A stretch of 64,000 bases of DNA from a virus. The first letter of the stretch is position 1; each line of letters begins with the position of its first letter. The notes under the pieces are model-generated. The model ran no database searches, was not told the origin of the DNA, and saw only the letters and a program-made list of their open reading frames with translations. Where the stretch lies: IMG/VR virus record IMGVR_UViG_3300026484_000053, positions 32,001-96,000 of that record; one strand, 5' to 3'. A program made the position numbers and the translations under genes. Positions 6,237-32,465 of this stretch are shown here, piece by piece.

Positions 6237-6575
6237 ATGCCATTAACAAATATATTAGGTGCAGGTGATTTAAGTGGGAAAAGAAATGTAAGAAATACAA
6301 TATTAAGATTTGGAAATGAAGATATAAACGCGATTATACGAGAGTTAGAAGTAATTAATCTTACAGGTCAATTACTTCATATTAAATCTAACAAGGATTT
6401 AGTACTTAAATTCTTTAAGGATTACATTAAATATAATCCTGAGCGTAAAGTATTTTCAACGAATAGTGAAGACAGGTATGATATTGCATTGAATATTAAC
6501 GAGCTAATTGAGCAAGTACCATTCGGATTAGTTGAGTTATTAACTCCTGAAGACGTAAATAAAAGTCATTTGTAA
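6237..6575 (+). CDS. Hypothetical protein
   Basis: 112-aa ORF, AAGGA RBS. Confidence 0.7.
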   Translation: MPLTNILGAGDLSGKRNVRNTILRFGNEDINAIIRELEVINLTGQLLHIKSNKDLVLKFFKDYIKYNPERKVFSTNSEDRYDIALNINELIEQVPFGLVELLTPEDVNKSHL

Positions 6576-6627
6576 TGACAGTAGCAGTAACGGCAGTAAC
6601 GGTAATAACGGTAATAAAGGCATTAAA

Positions 6628-6852
6628 ATGAATACGCACAGAGCGCACAGAGCACCAAGTAAAACGCAGCAAGAAATTAAATTTGCGCATGATAATAAAG
6701 TAGCAAATAGAGAATATAATATGTCTTATGAAGAAATTGCTAAAGAACTTAATATTACAGTAAGCGAAGTACAAATAGCTGAAAAATCAGCTATGAAAGT
6801 ATTTAAGCATCCAGTTAACGGTAATCTTTTAAAAGATTACCTGTCTATGTAA
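6628..6852 (+). CDS. Stand-alone sigma70 region-4-like HTH protein
   Basis: MSYEEIAKELNITVSEVQIAEKSAMKVFKHP matches sigma 4.2 pattern MTLEEIG..LGVT.ERV.Q.E..AL.KLRHP. Confidence 0.7.
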   Translation: MNTHRAHRAPSKTQQEIKFAHDNKVANREYNMSYEEIAKELNITVSEVQIAEKSAMKVFKHPVNGNLLKDYLSM

Positions 6853-6883
6853 ACGCATAAATAAAAATAAAGAAAGGACATAT

Positions 6884-8125
6884 ATGTCACAAAATAAATT
6901 AAGGTTCTTAAATTACGATCAGGAGTTTAAGTTTCAAGGTTTAAAACAAATGAGAGATACAGATGTTTACACTGTAACAGATAATAACTATTTAGCTAAT
7001 TTAACAACTTCCGAAACAGTACTACATGCTGGTAAAAACACATCTGGTCATAAACATGACGGATTAGACGAAGTGTATATGTTTACTAAAGGACATGGAG
7101 ATATCGAAATAGATCAAGTAAGATTTAGTGTAGAAGCAGGCGATATCGTGCATGTTAAAGGCGGCGAATTCCATAAAGTATTTAATACAGGAACTTCTGA
7201 CCTTATATTTGTAGCAATATTTCAAAAGTATACAAGACCAGAAGACGAAGCTATTAGTTCTACTAAAGGTATTCTGTTAGCAGGTGGAAGTGGCACAAGA
7301 TTAAGCCCTTATACTATTACAAGTTCAAAACAAGAGGCAATTGTGTATTCTAAACCAATGATTTATTATCCTTTAAGTACTCTAATGATGGCTGGTATTA
7401 AAGATATTCTTATTATTTCTACTCCTGTGGATCTTCCTAACTATGAGAAGATGTTAGGAGACGGATCTGATCTGGGAATAAACATAGAGTATAAAGTACA
7501 AGAAAATCCAGGTGGAATAGCTGAAGCATTTATCTTAGGTGAAGACTTTATTGATAATCATGATGTAGCACTTATTCTTGGAGATAATCTTTTCTATGGT
7601 GCAGGATTTACTGAAATACTTGAAGGTGCAAGAAGACAGGCGCAAAATGGTAATGGTGTTATATTTGGATATGAAGTTAAAGACCCTGAGAGGTTCGGAG
7701 TGATTGAAGCCCAAGGTTCAAGAATTATCTCTTTAGAAGAAAAGCCACAACATCCTAAGTCAAATATAGCTTCAGTAGGATTATATTTCTTACCTGCAGA
7801 TTGTGTATCAAAAGCAAAGAACATTAAACCTTCTAAAAGAGGCGAACTTGAAATTACAGATGTTCTTAATGAATTTCTATCTGAAGGAAGACTTCAGTTA
7901 AAAGAACTTGGTAGAGGCTTTGCGTATTTCGATTGCGGTACGATTGAGAGCCTATTTGAAGCTTCAAACTTTGTTAGGACGATTGAGAGTTGCACTAATG
8001 CTAAAATAGGATTAATTGAAGAAGTAGCTTATAACAAAGGTTACATCACAGCGGAGCAGCTTAATAAGTGTAAAAAATACGATAAAGTAGAACTTGGTTA
8101 TTACCTAAAATCGATAGCTCAATAG
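6884..8125 (+). CDS. rmlA: Cupin domain fused to glucose-1-phosphate thymidylyltransferase
   Basis: N-terminal cupin (GHKHDGLDEVY, GGEFHKVFN); then GILLAGGSGTRL, KPMIYYPLSTLMMAGI, LILGDNLFYG, EEKP, RGELEITD. Confidence 0.92.
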   Translation: MSQNKLRFLNYDQEFKFQGLKQMRDTDVYTVTDNNYLANLTTSETVLHAGKNTSGHKHDGLDEVYMFTKGHGDIEIDQVRFSVEAGDIVHVKGGEFHKVFNTGTSDLIFVAIFQKYTRPEDEAISSTKGILLAGGSGTRLSPYTITSSKQEAIVYSKPMIYYPLSTLMMAGIKDILIISTPVDLPNYEKMLGDGSDLGINIEYKVQENPGGIAEAFILGEDFIDNHDVALILGDNLFYGAGFTEILEGARRQAQNGNGVIFGYEVKDPERFGVIEAQGSRIISLEEKPQHPKSNIASVGLYFLPADCVSKAKNIKPSKRGELEITDVLNEFLSEGRLQLKELGRGFAYFDCGTIESLFEASNFVRTIESCTNAKIGLIEEVAYNKGYITAEQLNKCKKYDKVELGYYLKSIAQ

Positions 8126-8249
8126 AGCTGAAAGAGAGATAATTACGGGATCATTAATAATACTATTAATAGTAGCAGCACTAGGATTTGTATTCGGAGA
8201 TGGAGCTTTTGGAGCTAAGCTAGTAAATGCTTTTAATTGGTTAAACACT

Positions 8250-8594
8250 ATGCACTACATTGGGTTTATTATCTTAGGTGTTGTTTCATCTGCGCTGTTT
8301 GTTTTTATGACACTAAGTTCTGGAGCTGTAGCGAGTGATAAATTTGGAAAGCTAGGTACAGCGATAACAGCAGGAGCAGGTGGTATTATAGGAATTGTTA
8401 TTGCTATAATTTTATTAGCTTTTCCAGCCGTTAACATATTTGTAACTTACGAAGTTATGTCACTGATAAACGTTGACGCAACATCGATGTCTGAAATAGG
8501 TCAAGATGCTTGGAATATGATATTCATATACGCTTTAATATTTTTAGCTGCTCTTGGCGTTTCATCTGTTAAGAAGAAGCATTTTAAAGATTAG
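8250..8594 (+). CDS. Small multi-pass membrane protein
   Basis: Several hydrophobic segments; frame stays open and hydrophobic about 44 codons upstream of the ATG, so the true start may be non-AUG. Confidence 0.6.
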   Translation: MHYIGFIILGVVSSALFVFMTLSSGAVASDKFGKLGTAITAGAGGIIGIVIAIILLAFPAVNIFVTYEVMSLINVDATSMSEIGQDAWNMIFIYALIFLAALGVSSVKKKHFKD

Positions 8595-8596
8595 AC

Positions 8597-8618
8597 GTGT
8601 ATAACGCACGTTATACAC
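8597..8618. terminator. Intergenic hairpin (possible terminator or processing site)
   Basis: GTGTATAAC-GCAC-GTTATACAC, 9-bp perfect stem right after the stop codon; no long U tail. Confidence 0.35.
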
Positions 8619-8651
8619 TCAATAAATAACAATAAAACGTAGGATAAAACA

Positions 8652-9575
8652 ATGGATGGAATAAACATCGTAAACGTAATGAATGACTTAATTACTCATT
8701 ACGGAACAACTTATAACTACACTTGTACAGATAATATTAGTCAAGACGATACAACAATTGTTCTTGACAGTGCTGTCTTCCAGTGTGATGGATCTTTAGT
8801 AGGTCATCCGGTAAGTATAACAATAATAGATAATGTTACTACTGAAGAAGAAGATGACGAAGGTAATACAGTAACTACTACAGAGCAAGTACCCCAAGTT
8901 GTTTTTAGCGGTACCATACAAGAGCACGTATCAGGAACTGAATTCACACTAAGCGGTACTATTAACATCGAAAAGAATGACGATGACTGTGATGGAAGCG
9001 ACTCGTGCCAATTAAATCGAACAGCTACAATAGTTGAGATAGGACTTAATCCTAATGTTCTTAGTTTGTGCAACTCTTGTATAGATCAAATGAATTCTGC
9101 TAACGCTGGTATAATGACAGAGTACTACTTTCCTACAACTCATGATACTTTTACGAAATACGCCGATTGGGCTGAAGAAATGATATCTTATGCAGACTCT
9201 TGGAAAGACCCAGACTTTTTAAACAACAAGATGTCAGATTGGATTGTAAAGATGGAAGCACCGAATACTCCATGCGATTTAATTGGAGAAGCTAATATAA
9301 GTGCTTATATTATTAATATAACATCAATGAAAGATGAAGCGCTACAAATGCAAACTGATATTAAGGCTTACTTCGCTAGGTTAAAAAAGAATATTGTTAT
9401 GTGGAAAGTAGAAGCTAAAATGACGTCAGGACAGCCTTCTGATGGGATTTACGGTTCGTTAAGTTCAGAAAGTAAAGCTAAAGTTGATGACTTGTTAGAT
9501 TACAACGCTGCTCACACAGCTGAAGAATATAATGAATATAAGCAGCAGCTAATGCTTGATCTTAAGATAGACTAA
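8652..9575 (+). CDS. Acidic hypothetical protein, probably virion/baseplate-associated
   Basis: 307-aa ORF translationally coupled (TAATG) to the PAAR gene. Confidence 0.6.
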   Translation: MDGINIVNVMNDLITHYGTTYNYTCTDNISQDDTTIVLDSAVFQCDGSLVGHPVSITIIDNVTTEEEDDEGNTVTTTEQVPQVVFSGTIQEHVSGTEFTLSGTINIEKNDDDCDGSDSCQLNRTATIVEIGLNPNVLSLCNSCIDQMNSANAGIMTEYYFPTTHDTFTKYADWAEEMISYADSWKDPDFLNNKMSDWIVKMEAPNTPCDLIGEANISAYIINITSMKDEALQMQTDIKAYFARLKKNIVMWKVEAKMTSGQPSDGIYGSLSSESKAKVDDLLDYNAAHTAEEYNEYKQQLMLDLKID

Positions 9576-9859
9576 TGCCACCAGTAGTACGATTAGGAGA
9601 TAGCTGCTCAGGATGTTGTGCACCACCTGATGTAGCTGTAGGCGCATCAGGAGATGTGCTTGTAAATGGTATGGGTGCTGTTAGAGTAGGAGATCCTTAT
9701 AATCCACATGCTTGCCCTAAAAGTCCACCTCATGGTAGATCAGGAGCTGCAGGCAGTGGATCAGTAATAGTAAATGGAATGCCAGTTCAGCGAGTAGGAG
9801 ATCCTATAGATTGTGGTGCTTCTTGCGTTGCTGGAAGTGGTAATGTACTTGCTAACTAA
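9575..9859 (+). CDS. PAAR-domain spike tip protein (T4 gp5.4-like)
   Basis: VVRLGD, VLVNGMGAVRVGD, PPH, VIVNGMPVQRVGDPIDCG, GSGNV with Cys/His metal ligands. Confidence 0.92.
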   Translation: MPPVVRLGDSCSGCCAPPDVAVGASGDVLVNGMGAVRVGDPYNPHACPKSPPHGRSGAAGSGSVIVNGMPVQRVGDPIDCGASCVAGSGNVLAN

Positions 9860-9876
9860 ATTACGAAAGGTTAAAA

Positions 9877-10197
9877 ATGAATAACAATAATAACAATAAC
9901 AAAGCAGTAGAATGCGACATATTAGACGATATTGAGTGTATAGAAAGACGTGATATTAAAACTATAACAGGTAAAGAACTATTAGATAAAGTACAAATAA
10001 CGTACGATAGTGTTAAAGATCTTATTATAGTAAATACAGATAGCTCTTTGATAATTAAGTGTAATAATGTAGTTATAGCTAGTAATACAGATATAGTGAT
10101 GTTATCTGGAGATGCAGTAGGCGCAAAAGGTAACATACAACTTAATCCTACAGGTTTTAAAGGATTATTTAAAAAGATGCTTAATCTCTTAAATTAA
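9877..10197 (+). CDS. Hypothetical protein next to PAAR gene
   Basis: 106-aa ORF, AAAGG RBS, beta-rich C-terminal half. Confidence 0.6.
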   Translation: MNNNNNNNKAVECDILDDIECIERRDIKTITGKELLDKVQITYDSVKDLIIVNTDSSLIIKCNNVVIASNTDIVMLSGDAVGAKGNIQLNPTGFKGLFKKMLNLLN

Positions 10198-10216
10198 TAT
10201 TAATTTAATATTAGTA

Positions 10217-10225
10217 TGTTATAAT
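10217..10225 (+). promoter_or_regulatory. Early extended -10 promoter TGTTATAAT
   Basis: 10217-10246 identical to 30 nt of the promoters at 27301 and 28869. Confidence 0.7.
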
Positions 10226-10251
10226 ATACTATCTAAAAATAAAGGTTCAAC

Positions 10252-10479
10252 ATGAATTTAAGTAAAAAAATAACAATAGGTGCTAAAATAACTAAAAGTG
10301 CATTTAAAATAGGATTGGTTATTAAGCTACCAAAATTAGGTTCTAAATGGACTATAACTGCGATTGAAGATAATGTAGCTACTCTACTAAGAGAAGACGA
10401 GCAAATGGAAAGAAAAATCAATTATGCAAACATAAATAAATCATGGAGAACAGCTTCTGACACGCTGTGTGATAGTTAA
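10252..10479 (+). CDS. Hypothetical protein
   Basis: 75-aa ORF directly after promoter/RBS. Confidence 0.6.
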   Translation: MNLSKKITIGAKITKSAFKIGLVIKLPKLGSKWTITAIEDNVATLLREDEQMERKINYANINKSWRTASDTLCDS

Positions 10480-10688
10480 TGAGAAATGATAAGCATTATT
10501 TAAGCATCTTAGAACAGTTTGCTGTAGTTAGTAAAGCCTCAGTATCATTTAAAAATGGATTCTACGTAGTAAAGGTGCAAGGAATTTGTAAAGAACAAAA
10601 AGATAAAATTTTAAATACAAGTTACAAACATAAAAAAGTTTCATACGAAGTTCTTAAAAGAATTAAATACACCATAAATACACTGTAA
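10479..10688 (+). CDS. Hypothetical protein
   Basis: 69-aa ORF coupled by TAATG. Confidence 0.55.
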   Translation: MRNDKHYLSILEQFAVVSKASVSFKNGFYVVKVQGICKEQKDKILNTSYKHKKVSYEVLKRIKYTINTL

Positions 10689-10711
10689 CTGCACTAGTAA
10701 ATGATAAGTAA

Positions 10712-10876
10712 ATGCTAAGTAACAGAATAAAATTTATGATAACTATGGTAACTATTATGACGTTTGTATTATTGTACATGGTATATACCTTAATAGGGTG
10801 GTTAATTATAGGAGCAGTATTTTTTGGACTTGTTGTATCTACAATGATAACAACATCTCTATTTAACACTAATTAA
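10712..10876 (+). CDS. Small membrane protein (54 aa, below the ORF-track cut-off)
   Basis: Manual translation MLSNRIKFMITMVTIMTFVLLYMVYTLIGWLIIGAVFFGLVVSTMITTSLFNTN*; co-oriented with the operon. Confidence 0.5.
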   Translation: MLSNRIKFMITMVTIMTFVLLYMVYTLIGWLIIGAVFFGLVVSTMITTSLFNTN

Positions 10877-10891
10877 AAATAAAGGAAAGAA

Positions 10892-11887
10892 ATGGATGTA
10901 GAAAAAGTACGAAGTGCAGAAGGCGTAGAAGGCGTACTATGCGCAGAAAAGGTAATACTTGTTACTGGAGGATATGGTTTTATCGGCAGTAACTTCATTA
11001 GATATATGATCGACACGCATAATTATAAGATAGTTAATGTAGATATTTGCACTTACGCTGCAAATGAAAATAACTTAAATGGTTATACTACATCTCCGCA
11101 ATACGTGGAGTACATAAACGATATATGCGATGCTGATGCTATAAGTAAAATTATTAAAAGAGAAAATGTAACAGATATCATACATTTTGCTGCTGAATCC
11201 CATGTAGATATGTCACTAAAAGATCCTAACTTATTTGTTCGAACAAATGTTCTTGGAACGAGTGTATTATTAGAAGCTTTTAAAAGTAACAATTTAACAG
11301 GTAGGTTCCACCACGTTGGTACTGACGAAGTATACGGTGACTTACCTTTTGACACTTCAATGTTTACAGAAGAAACGCCTTATAACCCTAGTAGTCCTTA
11401 TAGCGCTTCTAAAGCTGCATCTGACATGTTAGTTAAATCTTTTAACAGATCTTTTAACATGAACTGTACTATAAGTAATTGCAGCAATAATTACGGTCCA
11501 AGGCAAGACAATACAAAGCTAATCCCTAAGGTTATTGAAAAAACTATTAAAGGCGAAGCGATTCCTGTTTATGGTACTGGAAGTAATGTAAGAGATTGGC
11601 TGTATGTTTTAGATCATTGTAAAGCTATAGATGTTATTTTTCACAAAGCGCAACCTGGTAGTCAATACCTTATAGGTGGAAGAAATGAAAGAACAAATCT
11701 TGACATAATTCATAATATATTTGACATTATGAAGAGCGGCGACATTGAATTTGTAGAAGACAGAGCAGGACATGATAGAAGATACGCTATAAATGCAGCA
11801 AAACTTGAAAATGAACTTGGTTGGAAAGCTGAAGAAACATTCGAAACTGGTATTGTGAAAACGATAAAGTGGTATAAAAGGAGATAA
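10892..11887 (+). CDS. rmlB: dTDP-glucose 4,6-dehydratase
   Basis: GGYGFIG, HFAAESHVD, TDEVYG, YSASKA, SNNYGPRQ, DRAGHDRRY. Confidence 0.95.
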   Translation: MDVEKVRSAEGVEGVLCAEKVILVTGGYGFIGSNFIRYMIDTHNYKIVNVDICTYAANENNLNGYTTSPQYVEYINDICDADAISKIIKRENVTDIIHFAAESHVDMSLKDPNLFVRTNVLGTSVLLEAFKSNNLTGRFHHVGTDEVYGDLPFDTSMFTEETPYNPSSPYSASKAASDMLVKSFNRSFNMNCTISNCSNNYGPRQDNTKLIPKVIEKTIKGEAIPVYGTGSNVRDWLYVLDHCKAIDVIFHKAQPGSQYLIGGRNERTNLDIIHNIFDIMKSGDIEFVEDRAGHDRRYAINAAKLENELGWKAEETFETGIVKTIKWYKRR

Positions 11888-11888
11888 A

Positions 11889-12350
11889 ATGCGTGGACAA
11901 ATATTACAATATTTGTTAGACAGTGATAAGAAGATTAAAGGTGCTGTATTAATAGGTTCTAGATCTATTAATGTACATGCAGAAAAGTCTGATTGGGATT
12001 TCTGTGTAGACATTGAAATGTGGGATAAGATAACTTATGATGTTGAAGTAGAGTATGGTGGATCAGGTCAAGACACTAATATTATGAGAAATATTGATTC
12101 TTGCAAGTTTACAGAAAACGGTGAAGTAATTAATTTAATATTATTTGATGAATACGGTATGACTAATCAAAGACGTATAAACGCTATTATGAAAAATTTA
12201 CAAGATGCTGTTAGCTATAAAAATGTTAGGCATCAGATAAACGAGGCTATAACTGATCTTATTTACGATGGTAGGCCTATAAGAGGTGAAGGTCATAATA
12301 GTGCGTTAAGAAGTTTAACAATACAAGACGATGACGAAGTACCATTTTAG
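11889..12350 (+). CDS. Minimal Pol-beta-superfamily nucleotidyltransferase
   Basis: LIGSRSINVHAEKSDWDF fits the hGS-x(9-13)-DhD signature; third acidic strand INLILFD. Confidence 0.7.
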   Translation: MRGQILQYLLDSDKKIKGAVLIGSRSINVHAEKSDWDFCVDIEMWDKITYDVEVEYGGSGQDTNIMRNIDSCKFTENGEVINLILFDEYGMTNQRRINAIMKNLQDAVSYKNVRHQINEAITDLIYDGRPIRGEGHNSALRSLTIQDDDEVPF

Positions 12351-12359
12351 GAGATATAA

Positions 12360-13439
12360 ATGAACGAGAATAAACCTCAAATAATATCGATGCACCAGAA
12401 GATAACTTCTTTTAAGAAAGGACAATCCTACACGCATTTACATACAGAGCATATAGCTTCTGTAATAGGTGCAGATGTAAAGTATGACGGAATATACGAT
12501 GATAAGTCGCCTACTTACGTTTACTTAGGTGCAGATTACTTTCCGGTGCTGCCTAATGGAAAGGAGAAAGCTATAAATCTTTACGGTGGACTTACAGAAG
12601 CTTATTATAAGTACTTCGAAAAGTTCGCGTTAAATAAAGCTACGTCTTATATATTAGATTACCCTGTACCTAAAGGATTTTTAAATGCTTTAGTAAAAAG
12701 AGCTGAAAATAAAAGTGCAAGTACATATAAAGGTGCTGAAGTAGAAGTATTAAAAGAATTACGAAATAAGTGCTTAAATTCTACAGTAGTTACCCAAGAA
12801 GATCTTGTAACAGAATCTAATTCTAATATGATGTTTGGCGACTCGCATTCAATTAGTATGACACCAGGTGGAGTACCTTGTACTAAAATAGGTGGAAGAA
12901 CTTTATTCGGTGCAGTTAAAAATAACGTTATTGTGAACGACTTTGGGAAAACTAAAGCTAAACATATTCTTCTTATGATGGGAAGCATAGATATTAGACA
13001 CCACATGTTTAGACAAGAAGATCCTTTTGGTAATATGAAAGAACTTCTTAATGCATATATGAAACAATGCATAGAGCTAGTAAAAAATGGTAAAAGCGTA
13101 GAAATATGCGCACCTGTGCCTATAGAAACAGAAACTAGGAAATTCAGTAAGGATAATGCTTATCCACCAAGAAGTGGAATATTCTTTCACGGTTCTAGAG
13201 AAGAAAGATTGTCATTAACATTATTCTTTATAGACGAAATACGAAGACTTATAGCTCATTTTGGCTATAATGAATCTATAACTCTTTCTACATATCCAGA
13301 AGAATGGTATACAATGAATCCAGCTGATTATGAAACTAAAATGGAAAGAGTAAAAGGAAGTCACGTTAGTATGCTTAATTGCAGAAGACTTAACTTTGGA
13401 AAAATAGGAGATGAAAATGATGAACACGAAGAATGGTAA
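12360..13439 (+). CDS. Two-domain protein: BGT-like N-terminal region plus SGNH hydrolase/acyltransferase domain
   Basis: INLYGG echoes BGT INFFGG; SGNH blocks FGDSH, GGRTLFG, MGSID and terminal GSHVS. Confidence 0.6.
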   Translation: MNENKPQIISMHQKITSFKKGQSYTHLHTEHIASVIGADVKYDGIYDDKSPTYVYLGADYFPVLPNGKEKAINLYGGLTEAYYKYFEKFALNKATSYILDYPVPKGFLNALVKRAENKSASTYKGAEVEVLKELRNKCLNSTVVTQEDLVTESNSNMMFGDSHSISMTPGGVPCTKIGGRTLFGAVKNNVIVNDFGKTKAKHILLMMGSIDIRHHMFRQEDPFGNMKELLNAYMKQCIELVKNGKSVEICAPVPIETETRKFSKDNAYPPRSGIFFHGSREERLSLTLFFIDEIRRLIAHFGYNESITLSTYPEEWYTMNPADYETKMERVKGSHVSMLNCRRLNFGKIGDENDEHEEW

Positions 13440-13845
13440 GGTAGAGAATTCTCTACCTGAAATTACAAATTTTAATGTACTTGGAGACAATCGAGGTAAT
13501 TTAGTAGCAATAGAGCAAAATAAAGATGTACCGTTTGATATTAGAAGAGTATTTTACGTATACGGTACGTCAGATGAGCCGAGAGGTTTTCATGCGCATC
13601 ACTTAACTAAGCAAGCGTTAATATGCTTACAAGGTTCTGTTACAATTGAATTAGACAATGGTACAGATAAAAGAGAGTACTTATTAGACTCTAAAGATAA
13701 AATGCTTATACAAGATAAAATGGTATGGGGAGTTAATAAGAACTTTAGTAAAGATTGCATATTGTTAGTACTTTCGAATATGTCATACGTTAAAGAAGAT
13801 TATATCACTGACTATGAAAAATTTAAATCAATAACGGCGCACTAG
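13411..13845 (+). CDS. fdtA: dTDP-4-keto-6-deoxyglucose 3,4-ketoisomerase (FdtA/QdtA cupin)
   Basis: [28 protein letters not shown] catalytic His pair. Confidence 0.88.
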
Positions 13846-14348
13846 TGAGAGGTGCAAACGTTGACATAACTTGCAGTATACATTGCAGCTCTGATGTTAG
13901 TAAAGATGCGCAAGTTGGTAAATTCACTAACATTTGGCAGTTTTGCACTATTATGCGTGGAGCAAGAGTAGGTTCAAGATGTAATATTAACATGAATGTT
14001 CTTGTAGAGACAGGTGGAATAGTAGGAGATAATTGTACTATTAAACCAGGTGTGCAAATTTGGGATGGAATAGTTATAGAAGATGACGTTTTTATAGGTC
14101 CTAATGCGACGTTTACTAATGACGTTTATCCTAAAAATAAAGTGCATTTAAAAGAAAACGAGTCGTATCCTGTAACTACAGTTTGTAAAGGAGCTTCAAT
14201 AGGTGCTAATGTAACTATACTACCTGGTATAACAATTGGAGAGAATTCACTTATTGCAGCTGGTAGTATAGTTACAAAAGACGTGCCTGCAAATAGTGTT
14301 TATAGAAATGAAGTAAAAAGTGTTGTTACTTTAATTAATAAAGACTAA
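13845..14348 (+). CDS. fdtC: dTDP-3-amino-3,6-dideoxyhexose N-acetyltransferase (hexapeptide repeat)
   Basis: [46 protein letters not shown]; GTG start coupled to fdtA stop. Confidence 0.85.
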
Positions 14349-14680
14349 TATTTGGTAAAGTTTTTGATAAAAATTGGTAGAAAATTGGTAAAGTACTTAT
14401 AAAATATTACTTAAATGTAAAGTAGTTTGTTAATTAAAAATACGAAGTAACGCAGGTAGTACTCTTGGGCTAAACCGTTTAATTTTTAAATTAAAACCGT
14501 ATGAGCAGTTCTGGTGTTACGCTGCGTAAAAGCATACTGCGCGGCACCTTTAAAGATATAATTTATGGCTGTATTATAATATGTGTAATATATGCATATG
14601 TAATATATGTAATATCTTTAACAGCGCTGCGTAACAGTGCAGTTTAACAGTGCAGTTTAACAACCATTTAATAATAACTA

Positions 14681-14689
14681 TGTTATAAT
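14681..14689 (+). promoter_or_regulatory. Early extended -10 promoter driving fdtB-bgt
   Basis: TGTTATAAT with phased TTTAA tracts, 50 nt before the fdtB ATG. Confidence 0.7.
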
Positions 14690-14738
14690 AACATAAATAA
14701 TAACGTAAATACAGCAAAATACAACTTAAAGGAATAAT

Positions 14739-15863
14739 ATGCAAGAAGAAAAAGTAAAGTTTTTAGACATTGGTGCTATAAACTCAAGAGATGAAGCACA
14801 GCTACAAGATGCAGCTAACAGAGTAATTAAATCAGGATGGTACTTAAACGGTAAAGAAAATGAACTATTTGGTAAAGAATTTTCTGAAATTATTGGTACT
14901 AATTATTGCGTACCTTTAGGTAATGGATTAGAAGCACTAGAGATTACTATTAGGGCATATAAAGAATTAGGTTTGTTTAAAGACAATGACGAGATTCTTG
15001 TACCAGCTAACACTTATATTGCTACAATATTAGCGATATCTGAAAATGGTTTAGTACCTGTTCTTATTGAACCAGGCGAAGATCATCTTATAGACGTAAA
15101 CAGATTAGAAAACGAAATTAACGATAAAACAGTTTGCATTTTACCTGTTCACCTTTATGGTAAAACGTGCGACATGAAAACCATAAATGATATCGCTTAC
15201 AGATACGATTTAATTGTTATAGAAGATTGCGCACAGTCGCATTATAGTAAAGACGATCAAGGTAATGTATCTGGTAGTACGTCAGATGTGGGTTGCTTTA
15301 GCTTTTACCCAGGTAAGAATCTTGGTGCGTTAGGTGACTCAGGTTGCATTTGTACTGACGATTCTCAAGTTGCTCAAATGGTTAAAACTATTTGTAACTA
15401 TGGTAGTAAGAAGAAATACTATAATGAAGTAAAAGGTGTAAACTCAAGAATGGATGAAATTCAAGCAGCGTTCTTAAGAGTTAAATTAACAAGATTAAGA
15501 TCAGATACAGCACTTAGACAAAAAGTAGCGCAATTCTACATGAATAATATTGAAAACGTAGATTGTTTACCTAAAATTGGTACTTTAAGTCAACATGCTT
15601 TTCATTTGTTTGTATTAACGATTCAAAATAGAGAAGCATTTATTGAATTTTTAGCTGCTAAAGGCATTGAAACACTTATACATTATCCTGTTGCACCGTT
15701 TAATCAACAATGCTATAAAGATGAATTCTTTCCAAAGGATTTTCCTATAACAGCTGAAATACACGATAAAATAATTTCAATACCTTTAAGCCCTGTAATA
15801 ACACTTAAAGAGCAACAAAGAGTAGTAGATGCTATTAACTCTTATTTTAAAGAGTCTTTATAA
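14739..15863 (+). CDS. fdtB: PLP-dependent dTDP-3-amino-3,6-dideoxyhexose aminotransferase (DegT/DnrJ family)
   Basis: VPANTYIAT, VHLYG, IEDCAQSH, SFYPGKNLGALGD with PLP Lys, NSRMDEIQAA. Confidence 0.92.
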   Translation: MQEEKVKFLDIGAINSRDEAQLQDAANRVIKSGWYLNGKENELFGKEFSEIIGTNYCVPLGNGLEALEITIRAYKELGLFKDNDEILVPANTYIATILAISENGLVPVLIEPGEDHLIDVNRLENEINDKTVCILPVHLYGKTCDMKTINDIAYRYDLIVIEDCAQSHYSKDDQGNVSGSTSDVGCFSFYPGKNLGALGDSGCICTDDSQVAQMVKTICNYGSKKKYYNEVKGVNSRMDEIQAAFLRVKLTRLRSDTALRQKVAQFYMNNIENVDCLPKIGTLSQHAFHLFVLTIQNREAFIEFLAAKGIETLIHYPVAPFNQQCYKDEFFPKDFPITAEIHDKIISIPLSPVITLKEQQRVVDAINSYFKESL

Positions 15864-17074
15864 TGAATATACTTTTAATGAAAATAGGTGGCAGAATTAA
15901 CACCGGTACTAGAAAACCTACTAATGGTAATGCTGGAGAGAATAAACTTATAGTAGAATTATTTTTAAAAGGTGGCCATAATGTGACGTTATGCACTAAA
16001 TACGTAAAAGGAGATGATCCTGAGACTTATTTCGGATCTAATAAAGTCTCTGCAGTTGATCTGGCATTAATTGATGACGTTAATAATATAGATATGAGTA
16101 AGTATGACAAGCTGGTAGTTATTAATGGAAGCAAGAATTTCTTTGGTGGACAAGATGGTGGAATATGCGCTACGTATAAAGTTCTTAACACATTTCCTAA
16201 AGAAGTAATATTCTTCTATACAGACCCTCTATTAACGCTTTCTCAAGTTTGGAATGATAAATTCGATGAAGCACGTAATCCAGGATGGGGTACAAAATGG
16301 ACTGAATCTGATCTTCTTATTACAAGAAAAGACATAACTCTCTTAGCAGCATCTAAAGGTACTGATCTTACAAAGAAACCATTCGTTGCTAAAGGAATAT
16401 TTACAGACTATAAAGAAATAATTGAATTTGAATGGCAAAAAGCTGTTATATTTGGTAATTCTGTACATGCTAATCCATCTGAAGAAAAGCAAATAGACTT
16501 AATTTATGGTGGATTTTACAGAGGTGGTGCAAGAAGATCGCAAATGATTGAATTTATGTTTGATACAGATTATAATGCTGCATTTTTTGGTAAAATTGAA
16601 GAACATGTATTTAAACTTACTAAAAAAGAGATTGCATCTATTAAAAAATATCCTTCGTTTAAAAAAGAGCTTGGAGACTGGGATTTCTGGAAGAAAGAAA
16701 CTAATAAAGCATACGCTACTATTGTATTTGCTGAAGATACATATTGCGACGCTATTGTTACTATGAGAGTTTATGCAGCAGCATTGAGTAATGTTATAGT
16801 TTTCATTGAAGACAAATATGATTCTAAACACACTATTTTTCCAAATGATACATTCAGAGGCTTTAATTACGTTAAAGATAAAGAAGATTTGTCTAGAAAG
16901 ATGAAGATAATTAAATCATTTACTACAGAGCAATATAATAAAATGTGTAAATCACAGATTAAACAACTTAGAAACGGTACTAAAGATTTATTTAAAGATT
17001 TTAATTCAGCTCTTGGATTAACATTTACAGAGCTTGAAGTTAAAGAATCTTCTGATGAGTTTAGCGACTGGTAA
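15863..17074 (+). CDS. bgt: T4 DNA beta-glucosyltransferase homologue (GT-B)
   Basis: Collinear blocks against T4 BGT (recalled): YDKLVVINGSKNFFGG, FYTDPLL..SQVW, DLIYGGFYRGGARRSQMIEFMFDT, VTMRVY, FIEDKYDSKH. Confidence 0.85.
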   Translation: MNILLMKIGGRINTGTRKPTNGNAGENKLIVELFLKGGHNVTLCTKYVKGDDPETYFGSNKVSAVDLALIDDVNNIDMSKYDKLVVINGSKNFFGGQDGGICATYKVLNTFPKEVIFFYTDPLLTLSQVWNDKFDEARNPGWGTKWTESDLLITRKDITLLAASKGTDLTKKPFVAKGIFTDYKEIIEFEWQKAVIFGNSVHANPSEEKQIDLIYGGFYRGGARRSQMIEFMFDTDYNAAFFGKIEEHVFKLTKKEIASIKKYPSFKKELGDWDFWKKETNKAYATIVFAEDTYCDAIVTMRVYAAALSNVIVFIEDKYDSKHTIFPNDTFRGFNYVKDKEDLSRKMKIIKSFTTEQYNKMCKSQIKQLRNGTKDLFKDFNSALGLTFTELEVKESSDEFSDW

Positions 17075-17136
17075 TGTTTAAGGTGCTAAGGTGCTAAGGT
17101 GCTTACATGTGCTTTAATCCTGTTTTAATCTTCTTA

Positions 17137-17145
17137 TGTTATAAT
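17137..17145 (+). promoter_or_regulatory. Early extended -10 promoter
   Basis: 17098-17146 repeats at 17937-17985 (46/49 nt). Confidence 0.7.
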
Positions 17146-17198
17146 AGTAGTATAACATAATTAAAACTTACAAATAATTGTAAAATAAAGGACATAAA

Positions 17199-17837
17199 AT
17201 GGCTAAAAATAAAACTTTCGTAGAATTAGTGCTAGAACATAGCAGAGCGATGAAAGGAAATTGGGCAGAAAGTAATTACATGTTAATGCCAATAAGCGAA
17301 TTTGGAATGCAAAGAGAATACTCAAAAATAGGAAACTTAAAATTAGGCGGTTCTGTATATGAGCTTTTTGAAAGTAAGATAGTAGATAATAGTTATTTTT
17401 TAGGTACTTTTCAAACAAAATCCATTAAAACAAAATTGGGTGACGAAAAAGAAACTAAATTTGAAGTAATATTTGCTATTACTTTTACTAAATACGACCA
17501 TTACAAATCATATGGAGAAGTTTACAATGTGGACGGTGTAGCTGTTAAAGATTTTTCAAGAGGTATAGCTACTAAAATGTATGAGTACTTCGTTAAAGAG
17601 AAGAAATTTACTATAATAGGCGACGAAGAGCAGTATTTTGGAGCTCGTAAGCTATGGAGTAAGCTAAGTAAAAAGTTAGATCTTACAGTAGATTTATTCG
17701 ACATTAAAAACGACGAAATTATAGAAAAAAATGTAGTGCTGCATCATGGAAATTATGATGAAGATTTTGATAAAAGATTATGGAGTTATAAAAGAGATAA
17801 AATAAATGTTAGGAGTATTCTTAAAGAATTAAAATAA
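17199..17837 (+). CDS. GNAT-like acetyltransferase-fold protein, tentative
   Basis: VDGVAVKDFSRGIATKMYEYF...IGDEEQYFGARKLWSKL fits the phage GNAT motif-A pattern. Confidence 0.55.
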   Translation: MAKNKTFVELVLEHSRAMKGNWAESNYMLMPISEFGMQREYSKIGNLKLGGSVYELFESKIVDNSYFLGTFQTKSIKTKLGDEKETKFEVIFAITFTKYDHYKSYGEVYNVDGVAVKDFSRGIATKMYEYFVKEKKFTIIGDEEQYFGARKLWSKLSKKLDLTVDLFDIKNDEIIEKNVVLHHGNYDEDFDKRLWSYKRDKINVRSILKELK

Positions 17838-17846
17838 GTTATGTAA

Positions 17847-17947
17847 CTTACATAACTTAATGGTGCTTACATAACTTAATGTGCTTACATAACTTAATGG
17901 TGCTTACATAACTTAATGGTGCTTACATAACTTAATGGTGCTTACAT
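17847..17947. repeat. Tandem array of 19-bp unit CTTACATAACTTAATGGTG (about 5.4 copies)
   Basis: Read directly; copy 2 lacks one G; array starts inside a 25-nt palindrome at 17835-17859. Confidence 0.95.
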
Positions 17948-17975
17948 GCACTTTAATCCTATTTTAATCTTCTTA

Positions 17976-17984
17976 TGTTATAAT
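17976..17984 (+). promoter_or_regulatory. Early extended -10 promoter
   Basis: TGTTATAAT plus two phased TTTAAT. Confidence 0.7.
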
Positions 17985-18009
17985 ATACTAACAAAAATAA
18001 AGGTATATT

Positions 18010-20807: not shown

Positions 20808-21455
20808 ATGATACTATTACCACAAATTATTGAAGATTCAGGAAGAGGAAAGAGAGCGTATGACTTACCAAGTAAGTTATTCGAAAGCAACATTATAGTT
20901 ATTGAAGGTGAAATTTCAGAAGAATCTATGCAAGCAGCTAAGATGCAACTATTGTATTTAGATAAAAAGCCACAATGTACAGAGATTGAAATTTACATTT
21001 CATCAGGTGGAGGATCAGTGTATGCTGGTAATGGTTTAATAGACCTTATACAGTTAATAGATACTCCAGTTAATACTACTTGTACTGGTATGATAGCATC
21101 TATGGGTACTCAAATATTTGCATCTGGTACTGGAACTAGAAGATTAATGCCTAGAAGTAGAGTTATGATTCACAGTGTAGGTTCAGGAGCAAGTGGTAAA
21201 TACCAAGACTTACTAATAGAAATGAAAGAAACTGAGTACTTACAAAAGCAGCTTATGCGTGATTTATCTTCGTTTACTAAAGGTAAGACTACTTATGCTA
21301 AAATGTGCAAGTTAACAGATAGAGATAATTGGCTTAATTCAGAAGAAGCTATTGAAATAGGTATTGCTGATGAAATTTTAGAAACGAGAGATCAAAGAAA
21401 AGAAAACGCAGCAATTAGAGCAAACGCAGCAAACGCAGCTAAGGGTGATAAATAA
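20808..21455 (+). CDS. clpP: ATP-dependent Clp protease proteolytic subunit
   Basis: IYISSGGGSVYAG, CTGMIASMG (catalytic Ser), MIH, DRDNWL..EEA...GIAD. Confidence 0.93.
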   Translation: MILLPQIIEDSGRGKRAYDLPSKLFESNIIVIEGEISEESMQAAKMQLLYLDKKPQCTEIEIYISSGGGSVYAGNGLIDLIQLIDTPVNTTCTGMIASMGTQIFASGTGTRRLMPRSRVMIHSVGSGASGKYQDLLIEMKETEYLQKQLMRDLSSFTKGKTTYAKMCKLTDRDNWLNSEEAIEIGIADEILETRDQRKENAAIRANAANAAKGDK

Positions 21456-29746: not shown

Positions 29747-30445
29747 ATGGAAATCAAACAAGAAACAAATAAAAACAAAACGACAGTACAAATGCTAAAT
29801 TATACGCCACTTTGGGTATGTAGTGACGCTATTAGAGAATGCTGGGCAAGTGGAGACCTAAGCGATACTACGAATGGTGTTGTAGGACAAAAAGATAAAG
29901 AACTTATTGCTAGAGTTGGCGTTAAATTTAAGCATGCTTCTACTATGGAACATCTTGCTTACAACTACAGATTAGACGGCATTAGTAGAGCACTTCTTCA
30001 AGAACTAGCACGTCATAGAATGGCAAGTCCTAGTGTAAAATCTACAAGATATACTTTAAAAGAACTTAAGACAGAGGAACCGTTTATTACTAACAGAGGT
30101 GTATATGATGGTGTTTATAAAGAAGGAGATTATAACTTTGAAAGAGCAGAAAAATATCTTGTTTTTACTGCAGACACTTATGTTGACATGGCAAGTATCG
30201 ATGCGCTTGAAAAGTTAAGAACTATTATCTTTCATGGTATAACTAATGACAGAGCAAAGTTTTGTATGCCTGAAGCGTATAGAACGTCTTTAGCTTTCAC
30301 TATTAATGCTAGGTCTTTAAGAAATTTCTTAAGTTTAAGAACTAGTAAAGCAGCACTTTGGGAGATAAGAGAATTAGCTCAAACTATGTTTAATGTACTA
30401 CCTGAAGAGCATAAGTATTTGTTTGAAGACTGTGTTGAAGTGTAG
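29747..30445 (+). CDS. thyX: Flavin-dependent thymidylate synthase
   Basis: HASTMEH, ISRALLQELARHRMASPSVKSTRY (RHRx7SxR), INARSLRNF..LR, WEIRELA. Confidence 0.95.
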   Translation: MEIKQETNKNKTTVQMLNYTPLWVCSDAIRECWASGDLSDTTNGVVGQKDKELIARVGVKFKHASTMEHLAYNYRLDGISRALLQELARHRMASPSVKSTRYTLKELKTEEPFITNRGVYDGVYKEGDYNFERAEKYLVFTADTYVDMASIDALEKLRTIIFHGITNDRAKFCMPEAYRTSLAFTINARSLRNFLSLRTSKAALWEIRELAQTMFNVLPEEHKYLFEDCVEV

Positions 30446-31889: not shown

Positions 31890-32465
31890 TTACTTGGCCT
31901 GTAATTGCTTAAGTAGATCCTGAGGACTGCCTATAAAGACGTTATTAGTTACGTTGTTAGGCTGATCTGTCTTTATATCAGTAGTATTAAGCATTTTTAC
32001 GTCTTTTTGTACTCTAGTAAATTGAGTATATACAGATGTCATAGCTTTAGACGTGTCGTTTATACCCTTAATAAGAGAGCTAAATGATTCTATCATCTCT
32101 GCTGCTGAACCTTCTTCAGATTCAAGCAGCAGGTCTTGCTCGTACTTATCTAATACATTACTTGCACTTTTAATACTTCTTCTAAGCAACCTTCTCATTA
32201 ACTCAAAATCTTCCATCATAAGATCAGATTTAGCAATTGCTGTAATTACAGTATCATCTGATTCTACGTCTATAATTTCTGATTCTACATCGTGCGTGTC
32301 GTGCGTGTCGTGCTTTTCTATACTATGTTTATCTAAAGTGTCTTGCTTAGCCTTTTCCATAGACTGTTGCATATTACCTGCTTCAATCTCGAATGTGCCA
32401 AGTAGAGCTTTAAATTTGTCTATTTCTACCTTTGGTGTTTGTGTCGTGTGCGTCGTGTGTGGCAT
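31890..32465 (-). CDS. gp16: Terminase small subunit (T4 gp16-like)
   Basis: EDFELMRRLL..I central helix and C-terminal NNVFIGSPQDLLKQL typical of T4-like TerS. Confidence 0.75.
   Translation of the reverse strand: MPHTTHTTQTPKVEIDKFKALLGTFEIEAGNMQQSMEKAKQDTLDKHSIEKHDTHDTHDVESEIIDVESDDTVITAIAKSDLMMEDFELMRRLLRRSIKSASNVLDKYEQDLLLESEEGSAAEMIESFSSLIKGINDTSKAMTSVYTQFTRVQKDVKMLNTTDIKTDQPNNVTNNVFIGSPQDLLKQLQAK

Follow-up and report, generated by a model that had tools for sequence, protein, structure and literature searches.

Genes of a dTDP-sugar pathway and a predicted DNA glycosyltransferase in one phage

The stretch of viral DNA analyzed here (the window) comprises 64,000 nucleotides, positions 32,001 to 96,000 of IMG/VR virus record IMGVR_UViG_3300026484_000053. 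The full record (G000; 193.7 kb; completeness 100% according to CheckV) contains a T4-type gene set of portal, late sigma factor, sliding clamp, split DNA polymerase and RNase H. Feature coordinates without a prefix are window positions, and those of the full record carry the prefix G000. An initial reading of the window made from its letters only (the sequence-only reading) had proposed that a homologue of the T4 beta-glucosyltransferase (BGT) encoded here attaches an N-acetylated amino-dideoxy sugar, not glucose, to a hydroxylated DNA base, the sugar being supplied on deoxythymidine diphosphate (dTDP) by genes nearby. The features concerned are as follows.

6884..8125, + strand: cupin-RmlA fusion, glucose-1-phosphate thymidylyltransferase, which makes dTDP-glucose; cupin at about residues 1-120
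10892..11887, + strand: RmlB, dTDP-glucose 4,6-dehydratase; above the TIGR01181 cut-off
12360..13439, + strand: SGNH-like protein with GDSH...H335 and an acidic-Trp tail; overlaps fdtA
13411..13845, + strand: FdtA/QdtA-family 3,4-ketoisomerase (RGFHAH); 115 bits to FdtA vs. 71-77 bits to QdtA
13845..14348, + strand: left-handed beta-helix N-acyltransferase in the FdtC role; 4mzu and 7s43 closest
14681..14689, + strand: extended -10 promoter motif TGTTATAAT, 58 nt 5′ of fdtB, with TTTAA upstream; a genome-wide class
14739..15863, + strand: FdtB/QdtB-type C3-aminotransferase of the DegT family, dependent on pyridoxal phosphate (PLP), with sugar-aminotransferase matches
15863..17074, + strand: DNA glycosyltransferase (GT) of the T4 BGT family (GT-B), 403 amino acids, from a clade lacking Glu272 and with an acidic-Trp C-terminal tail

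All six genes for RmlA, RmlB, FdtA, the FdtC-type enzyme, FdtB and the BGT homologue are intact, and searches of profile and structure databases bore out the enzyme assignments of the sequence-only reading. RmlA and RmlB both exceed their NCBIfam equivalog cut-offs. The ketoisomerase has FdtA (2pa7) as its best match and shares DxRG and WGV with 4zu4; at the second of these sites, WGV in this protein, relatives carry WREM. The hexapeptide acetyltransferase matches 4mzu (acetyltransferase/beta-helix domain) and 7s43 at E ~1e-45, and the matches of the DegT aminotransferase include QdtB, with the PLP-lysine motif intact. Together, these genes supply all five enzyme types of the dTDP-3-acetamido-3,6-dideoxyhexose pathway: RmlA, RmlB, a 3,4-ketoisomerase with its His pair, a C3-aminotransferase and an N-acetyltransferase. 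The series RmlA-RmlB-FdtA-FdtB-FdtC is an established dTDP-sugar pathway.

The promoter at 14681 preceding fdtB and the GT gene, and the TAATG overlap of these two genes at 15861-15865, were both located as claimed. Different promoter motifs precede rmlA, rmlB/fdtA/fdtC and fdtB/bgt, respectively, and a PAAR gene and other unrelated genes are interspersed between the sugar-gene groups; a single contiguous operon in G000 was rejected on these grounds. The GC content of the sugar genes, overall and at third codon positions (GC3), equals that of the rest of the genome and thus gives no sign of recent transfer. No Rfam families were found in window positions 6500-18000.

Minor features of this region include the metal-binding cupin on RmlA (6884-7243), which is also fused to RmlA in the related locus L008 (L008:6774-7115; 54% identity) and not present in loci L007, L027, L112 and L113. 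A small Pol-beta-type nucleotidyltransferase (11889-12350; PF18765, weak) with an acidic-Phe tail is encoded between rmlB and the SGNH-like gene. The 390-nt gap 5′ of fdtB (14349-14738) contains the short direct repeat ACAGTGCAGTTTA twice and a GC-rich stretch, with no Rfam match.

A glycosyltransferase clade without Glu272 and its gene neighborhoods

Profile searches identified the product of 15863-17074 as a BGT homologue (PF09198, E 1e-13; phrog_7922, E 4e-43; PDB 1bgt, E 2e-33), with 30% sequence identity over 272 amino acids. Structure alignment confirmed the homology: Foldseek matched the predicted fold to BGT with an E value of 8e-20 and TM-scores of 0.69/0.78, and ranked BGT first and the alpha-glucosyltransferase AGT second, far ahead of other GT-B enzymes. 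The residue mapping of the sequence-only reading also holds. The catalytic aspartate is kept (D121, equivalent to T4 D100), as are arginines R220, R224 and R302 (T4 R191, R195 and R269), and T4 E272 is replaced by A305. In T4 numbering, the equivalents of E22 and the NFFGG loop are retained as well.

These properties bear on the possibility that the GT has been repurposed and that virion proteins or the host surface receive the sugar, for receptor masking or superinfection exclusion, comparable to giant-virus fibril glycans. Other viruses provide precedents for amino-dideoxy sugar pathways that serve virion glycans, and the equivalent of T4 R115, which is not basic in the GT, is not conserved. 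Nevertheless, we consider this explanation very unlikely, given the retained NFFGG loop, D100 and three arginines, the ranking of BGT and then AGT well before other GT-B enzymes, the position of the GT gene after a hydroxymethylase gene in three clusters and a GT sequence without an obvious signal or membrane segment.

The replacement of Glu272, which had been pointed out for this one enzyme, marks a whole clade. Among 125 aligned BGT homologues, 113 retain the glutamate, and D100, R191, R195 and R269 are almost invariant. In the GT and its 37-48% relatives, Glu272 is replaced by Ala, Tyr or Cys. The seven Glu272-less rows form one clade (SH-aLRT 100, stem 1.11) in a quick tree, and three members found later have the same change. 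Further traits shared by the clade are an NGNxGE N-terminal loop, D258E and a GxW insertion near T4 I238-V243. We take T4 E272 to be the residue that binds the ribose hydroxyls of uridine diphosphate (UDP), and I238 and V243 presumably line the uracil pocket. We infer that the loss of Glu272 and the clade-specific changes at the uracil pocket fit a switch of donor from UDP to dTDP. As a separate observation, TAG is decoded as Gln on the contig that carries the BGT homologue of locus L110 (P0057).

Analysis of gene neighborhoods revealed fdtC-fdtB directly 5′ of the GT gene in all seven other clade members with upstream DNA (L007, L008-13, L026, L027, L112, L113 and the P0009 contig), six of which have the complete rmlA/rmlB/fdtA/fdtC/fdtB set. 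The order rmlA-rmlB-fdtA-fdtC-fdtB-GT is followed by thyX in L007, preceded by a hydroxymethylase (HMase) gene in L112, and flanked by kinase-HMase and a dCTPase-like gene in L027; in L113 it occurs with no HMase in view, and in L026 it ends in a broken GT. L008-13, a single phage, reads HMase-cupin/rmlA-fdtA-fdtC-fdtB-GT with rmlB ~10 kb downstream, and the P0009 contig, which begins at fdtC, reads fdtC-fdtB-GT. L112 and L113 were examined after the prediction had been made, and both fit. The co-occurrence of bgt and fdt genes, which the sequence-only reading had suggested checking, therefore holds in the rest of the clade wherever the context suffices, with these two among the cases. In L008, L027 and L112 the sugar genes are flanked by a gp42-type hydroxymethylase and the GT. 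Identity between the clusters is only 40-60%, and the pairwise identities of FdtB and GT are correlated across six clusters (rho 0.81; the pairs are not independent).

By contrast, rml/fdt genes are absent at all 11 Glu-keeping BGT loci (T4, PS2, Muldoon, L019-21, L024, L025, L028, L029 and L114), most of which adjoin a hydroxymethylase or kinase, and the module is absent from all 80 further hydroxymethylase loci. In IMG/VR, a single-sequence scan gave no matches, whilst an alignment-based scan matched the L008 phage and two Serratia phages but nothing else; no members of the GT clade were found in GTDB genomes. GT1, GT2 and AGT genes were not detected in G000, and no other consumer of the sugar is therefore apparent.

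These neighborhoods also speak to a simpler explanation, in which the GT is an ordinary beta-glucosyltransferase that uses UDP- or dTDP-glucose to form glucosyl-hydroxymethylcytosine and the Fdt enzymes form a co-transcribed auxiliary module that serves the host envelope or some different glycan. The BGT fold and catalytic residues are retained, RmlA alone would give dTDP-glucose, which is compatible with the loss of Glu272, and amino-dideoxy sugars of this type usually occur in O-antigens or S-layers. However, this explanation accounts neither for five genes standing before this GT in clusters of 40-60% identity and at none of the Glu-keeping loci, nor for the placement of sugar genes between hydroxymethylase and GT, and no other GT was detected to use the sugar. 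We regard it as unlikely.

The acceptor base and the predicted modification

The enzyme that makes the acceptor base had been expected outside the window, and a gp42-type hydroxymethylase acting on deoxycytidine monophosphate (dCMP) was indeed found elsewhere in the genome, next to a deoxynucleoside monophosphate (dNMP) kinase gene. A separate thymidine monophosphate (dTMP) synthase is encoded in the window.

G000:14138-14668: dNMP kinase, directly 5′ of the hydroxymethylase gene
G000:14671-15357: gp42-type dCMP hydroxymethylase, 56% identity to T4 gp42, ~17 kb before the window start
29747-30445: ThyX, separate dTMP synthase

G000 encodes three dNMP kinases (at 14138, 173435 and 184989), and ThyX together with a dCMP deaminase provides a dTMP supply apart from the hydroxymethylase. 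The hydroxymethylases carry the equivalents of Cys148, D145, D169 (not N) and D179, the signature of 5-hydroxymethyl-dCMP synthases (PMC13326640). In the G000 enzyme the catalytic Cys, an acidic residue at the L143 position, an Asp at the N177 position and D169 are all kept, suggesting that G000:14671-15357 encodes a 5-hydroxymethyl-dCMP synthase rather than a 5-hydroxy-dCMP synthase. We rejected 5-hydroxycytosine (5hoC) as the acceptor because D169 is kept, with no D169N; RSND is retained in G000, L008, L027 and L112.

Given this hydroxymethylase, the co-occurrence of bgt and fdt genes and the clade-wide loss of Glu272, the proposal of a sugar on a hydroxylated base gains good support. We consider it likely that 5-hydroxymethylcytosine (5hmC) is glycosylated in this phage from a dTDP-3-amino-3,6-dideoxyhexose, most likely as 3-acetamido-3,6-dideoxygalactose (Fuc3NAc; +187 Da). 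It also appears likely, if a shade less so, that the donor used by one BGT clade has changed from UDP-glucose to an O-antigen sugar carried on dTDP, and that this clade, aided by five co-inherited pathway genes, decorates 5hmC genome-wide with a 3-acetamido-3,6-dideoxyhexose, which in this phage the SGNH-type enzyme may tailor further.

In the mechanism that we propose, the gp42-type enzyme would form 5-hydroxymethyl-dCMP, an activity suggested by its 56% identity and conserved active-site residues, and this nucleotide would be phosphorylated and incorporated in DNA. Judged by homology, RmlA would make dTDP-glucose, which RmlB would convert to a 4-keto-6-deoxy sugar; FdtA would isomerize this to the 3-keto form, FdtB would turn that into the 3-amino sugar, and FdtC would N-acetylate it. 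The GT would flip out 5hmC and, using D121 as the base, attach the sugar at the hydroxymethyl oxygen, probably with inversion, by analogy with T4 BGT. The likeliest product would be 5-(3-acetamido-3,6-dideoxy-beta-D-galactosyl)oxymethyl-cytosine, with a calculated mass increment of +187.08 Da and a nucleoside of ~444.19 Da. As to the identity of the sugar, the isomerase of this phage, with scores of 115 bits to FdtA and 71-77 bits to QdtA and with DxRG and WGV as in 4zu4, makes Fuc3NAc the probable one; the glucose-configured isomer Qui3NAc would be much less probable, and an unacylated amine or a different acyl group somewhat less probable again. The modification probably protects the DNA from host nucleases, including those aimed at glucosyl-hmC, a role that we assume from T4 and RB69.

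The final group on the sugar may differ from N-acetyl, either by O-acylation or deacylation by the SGNH-like protein or by an N-acyl group other than acetyl. The SGNH-like gene overlaps fdtA, its product has an intact GDS...H and an acidic-Trp tail, and 16 viral contigs, as well as T4-like phages of Aeromonas, have homologues in the vicinity of hydroxymethylase genes. Its fold weakly resembles that of GDSL esterases. The gene is absent from all other module loci, and homologues also occur on contigs with no BGT or fdt genes nearby, making a different final group quite unlikely. Since it is missing from those loci, we rejected the SGNH-like gene as a core part of the module and regard an accessory acylation or deacylation step as the most that its product might perform.

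Several points weigh against the predicted 5hmC modification. The sugar genes are scattered in G000 and lie at least 24 kb from the hydroxymethylase gene. A gp56-type deoxycytidine triphosphatase (dCTPase; PF08761) was not found in G000, which has only a MazG-like gene (G000:25360) that could fill this role; a gp56-like gene is present in the relative L027. Cytosine replacement may thus be partial in this phage. In addition to the non-basic residue at the R115 position, three or four unrelated BGTs have Gln or Asp at position 272 with the module absent. The clade has a single origin, and the loss of Glu272 and the gain of the module are one shared event; what is shown is therefore tight co-inheritance, not repeated convergence. 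The L026 GT gene (L026:3455-4290) has an out-of-frame deletion of ~100 codons after the first 12 residues, which may be natural loss or an assembly error; fdtA, fdtC, fdtB and rmlB of L026 read through, and its rmlA reads in two frames. Finally, the module was found in no cultured phage searched.

The acidic-Trp C-terminal tail of the GT recurs in the SGNH-like protein, the late sigma factor, a gp33-sized protein, RNase H, the portal and the C-terminal subunit of the polymerase; apart from the GT (15863) and SGNH-like (12360) genes, the genes concerned are at G000:9985, 15405, 27505, 70399 and 165953. The T4 late sigma factor, RNase H, DNA polymerase and gp33 are clients of the sliding clamp, and GT orthologues of P0004 and P0008 end in an LxxFF motif. 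Modelling of the tail on the clamp gave a score of 0.50, a mark reached by 51 of 78 solved pairs and two of 108 mismatches, compared with 0.01 for the best control; contact agreement was at least 57%, and the partner had a predicted local confidence (pLDDT) of 45-47. It is plausible, on this weak support, that the GT tail binds the sliding clamp.

The SGNH-like family (phrog_13881), often with clamp-type tails, also belongs to a conserved block (L057, L067, L080, L082 and L088) with a dCMP hydroxymethylase, a dCMP deaminase, two or three proteins of 290-390 amino acids and often a C5-methylase-like gene, with no BGT nearby. Further homologues occur in the cultured Aeromonas phages 44RR2.8t, 31 and 25. 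This block may represent a separate, undescribed hmC hypermodification pathway.

Relation to known systems and genomic setting

The predicted system resembles T4 gp42 and BGT, which produce beta-glucosyl-5hmC: its hydroxymethylase is of the gp42 type (56% identity), a dNMP kinase is present, the GT has the fold and catalytic residues of BGT, and hydroxymethylase and GT genes cluster in relatives. It differs in the lost Glu272, the five dTDP amino-dideoxy-sugar genes and the lack of a detected AGT or gp56-type dCTPase in G000. With the PF09198 profile match, fold and catalytic set present and Glu272 lacking, the GT is predicted to be BGT-like in mechanism but is not classed as a UDP-glucose transferase. 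The dTDP-Fuc3NAc and dTDP-Qui3NAc pathways (FdtA-B-C; Shewanella FdtD; QdtA-B-C) comprise the same five enzyme types, with strong matches to solved members, but here the genes are phage-borne and coupled to a DNA GT rather than to O-antigen or S-layer glycosyltransferases. RB69 and DLP3 make arabinosyl-5hoC with nucleotide-sugar genes of their own that accompany a homologue of thymidylate synthase and a DNA GT (PMC13326640), and this phage likewise combines its own sugar pathway with such enzymes; whereas that system has D169N and NDP-arabinose, here D169 is kept, the predicted acceptor is 5hmC and the predicted donor carries an amino-dideoxy sugar, derived from a hexose, on dTDP. GT clusters linked to TET/5mYOX enzymes, some with a partner epimerase, likewise place non-glucose sugars (hexose, HexNAc or heptose) on 5hmC, but there 5hmC is made on DNA by a methylase and a dioxygenase, and dTDP, deoxyhexose and aminotransferase are unmentioned (Pyle et al., 10.1101/2023.12.21.572611).

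Sugar-modified cytosines and phage nucleotide-sugar pathways are already known, and the predicted modification, well supported computationally, would be a new form of sugar-hypermodified cytosine. The sequence-only reading knew of no description of it, and our literature searches, outside of which most subscription journals lay, likewise found no report of a dTDP donor or an amino-dideoxy sugar on DNA. If the prediction is true, the GT would, to our knowledge, be the first enzyme to glycosylate DNA from a deoxynucleotide sugar, and DNA would not previously have been known to carry an amino-dideoxy sugar. The hypermodified bases would gain a new chemical class, and the phage would offer a clear example of how a complete lipopolysaccharide-sugar pathway can be recruited to coat DNA, an origin of DNA sugar coats that has been proposed before (PMC13326640). 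A further prediction is that one residue marks the switch of donor within the BGT family. DNA of this kind may escape nucleases and glycosylases directed against glucosyl- or arabinosyl-hmC, and a BGT accepting dTDP-3-amino sugars would be a possible 5hmC-labelling tool, since the amine or acyl group at C3 provides a handle. The enzymes involved are all small and soluble, and the claim is therefore testable without phage culture.

Other loci encountered in the searches point to additional sugars. At L033:862-9578 and L050:9980-17903, hydroxymethylase genes are clustered with those for a fused nucleotidyltransferase/kinase, an epimerase, a GT-B protein of divergent sequence and a C5-methylase-like protein; these clusters probably specify another phage-made sugar on hmC by a heptose-like pathway. 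At L029:1884-5393, a Glu-keeping BGT is followed by CofD-family and IspD-like genes, possibly a further variant of the sugar donor.

Elsewhere in the genome, a near-complete trans-translation/proteolysis set comprises SmpB (G000:5514-5963; above the NCBIfam cut-off), a ClpX-like ATPase (G000:21153-22442) and a ClpP-like protease (20808-21455). Searches confined to the window found no tmRNA, and no tRNA genes were found within it. A small signal-peptide protein with CxxCH (G000:25816-26133) appears cytochrome c553-like by its sequence only, with no PHROG or strong NCBIfam match. The palindromes CGCG, CCGG and GATC are somewhat depleted; as palindromes with and without C are not cleanly separated, this is uninformative. 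Promoter motifs across G000 take the form TTTAA...TGTTATAAT, with 55 + strand TGnTATAAT sites mostly just 5′ of genes. We take this style, TTTAA followed by an extended -10 element, to be the Campylobacterota sigma70 type, and the host is therefore probably a vent member of the Campylobacterota. The sole public run containing the window sequence is a hydrothermal-vent DNA metagenome, with no RNA run listed, and this run may be the source sample of the phage.

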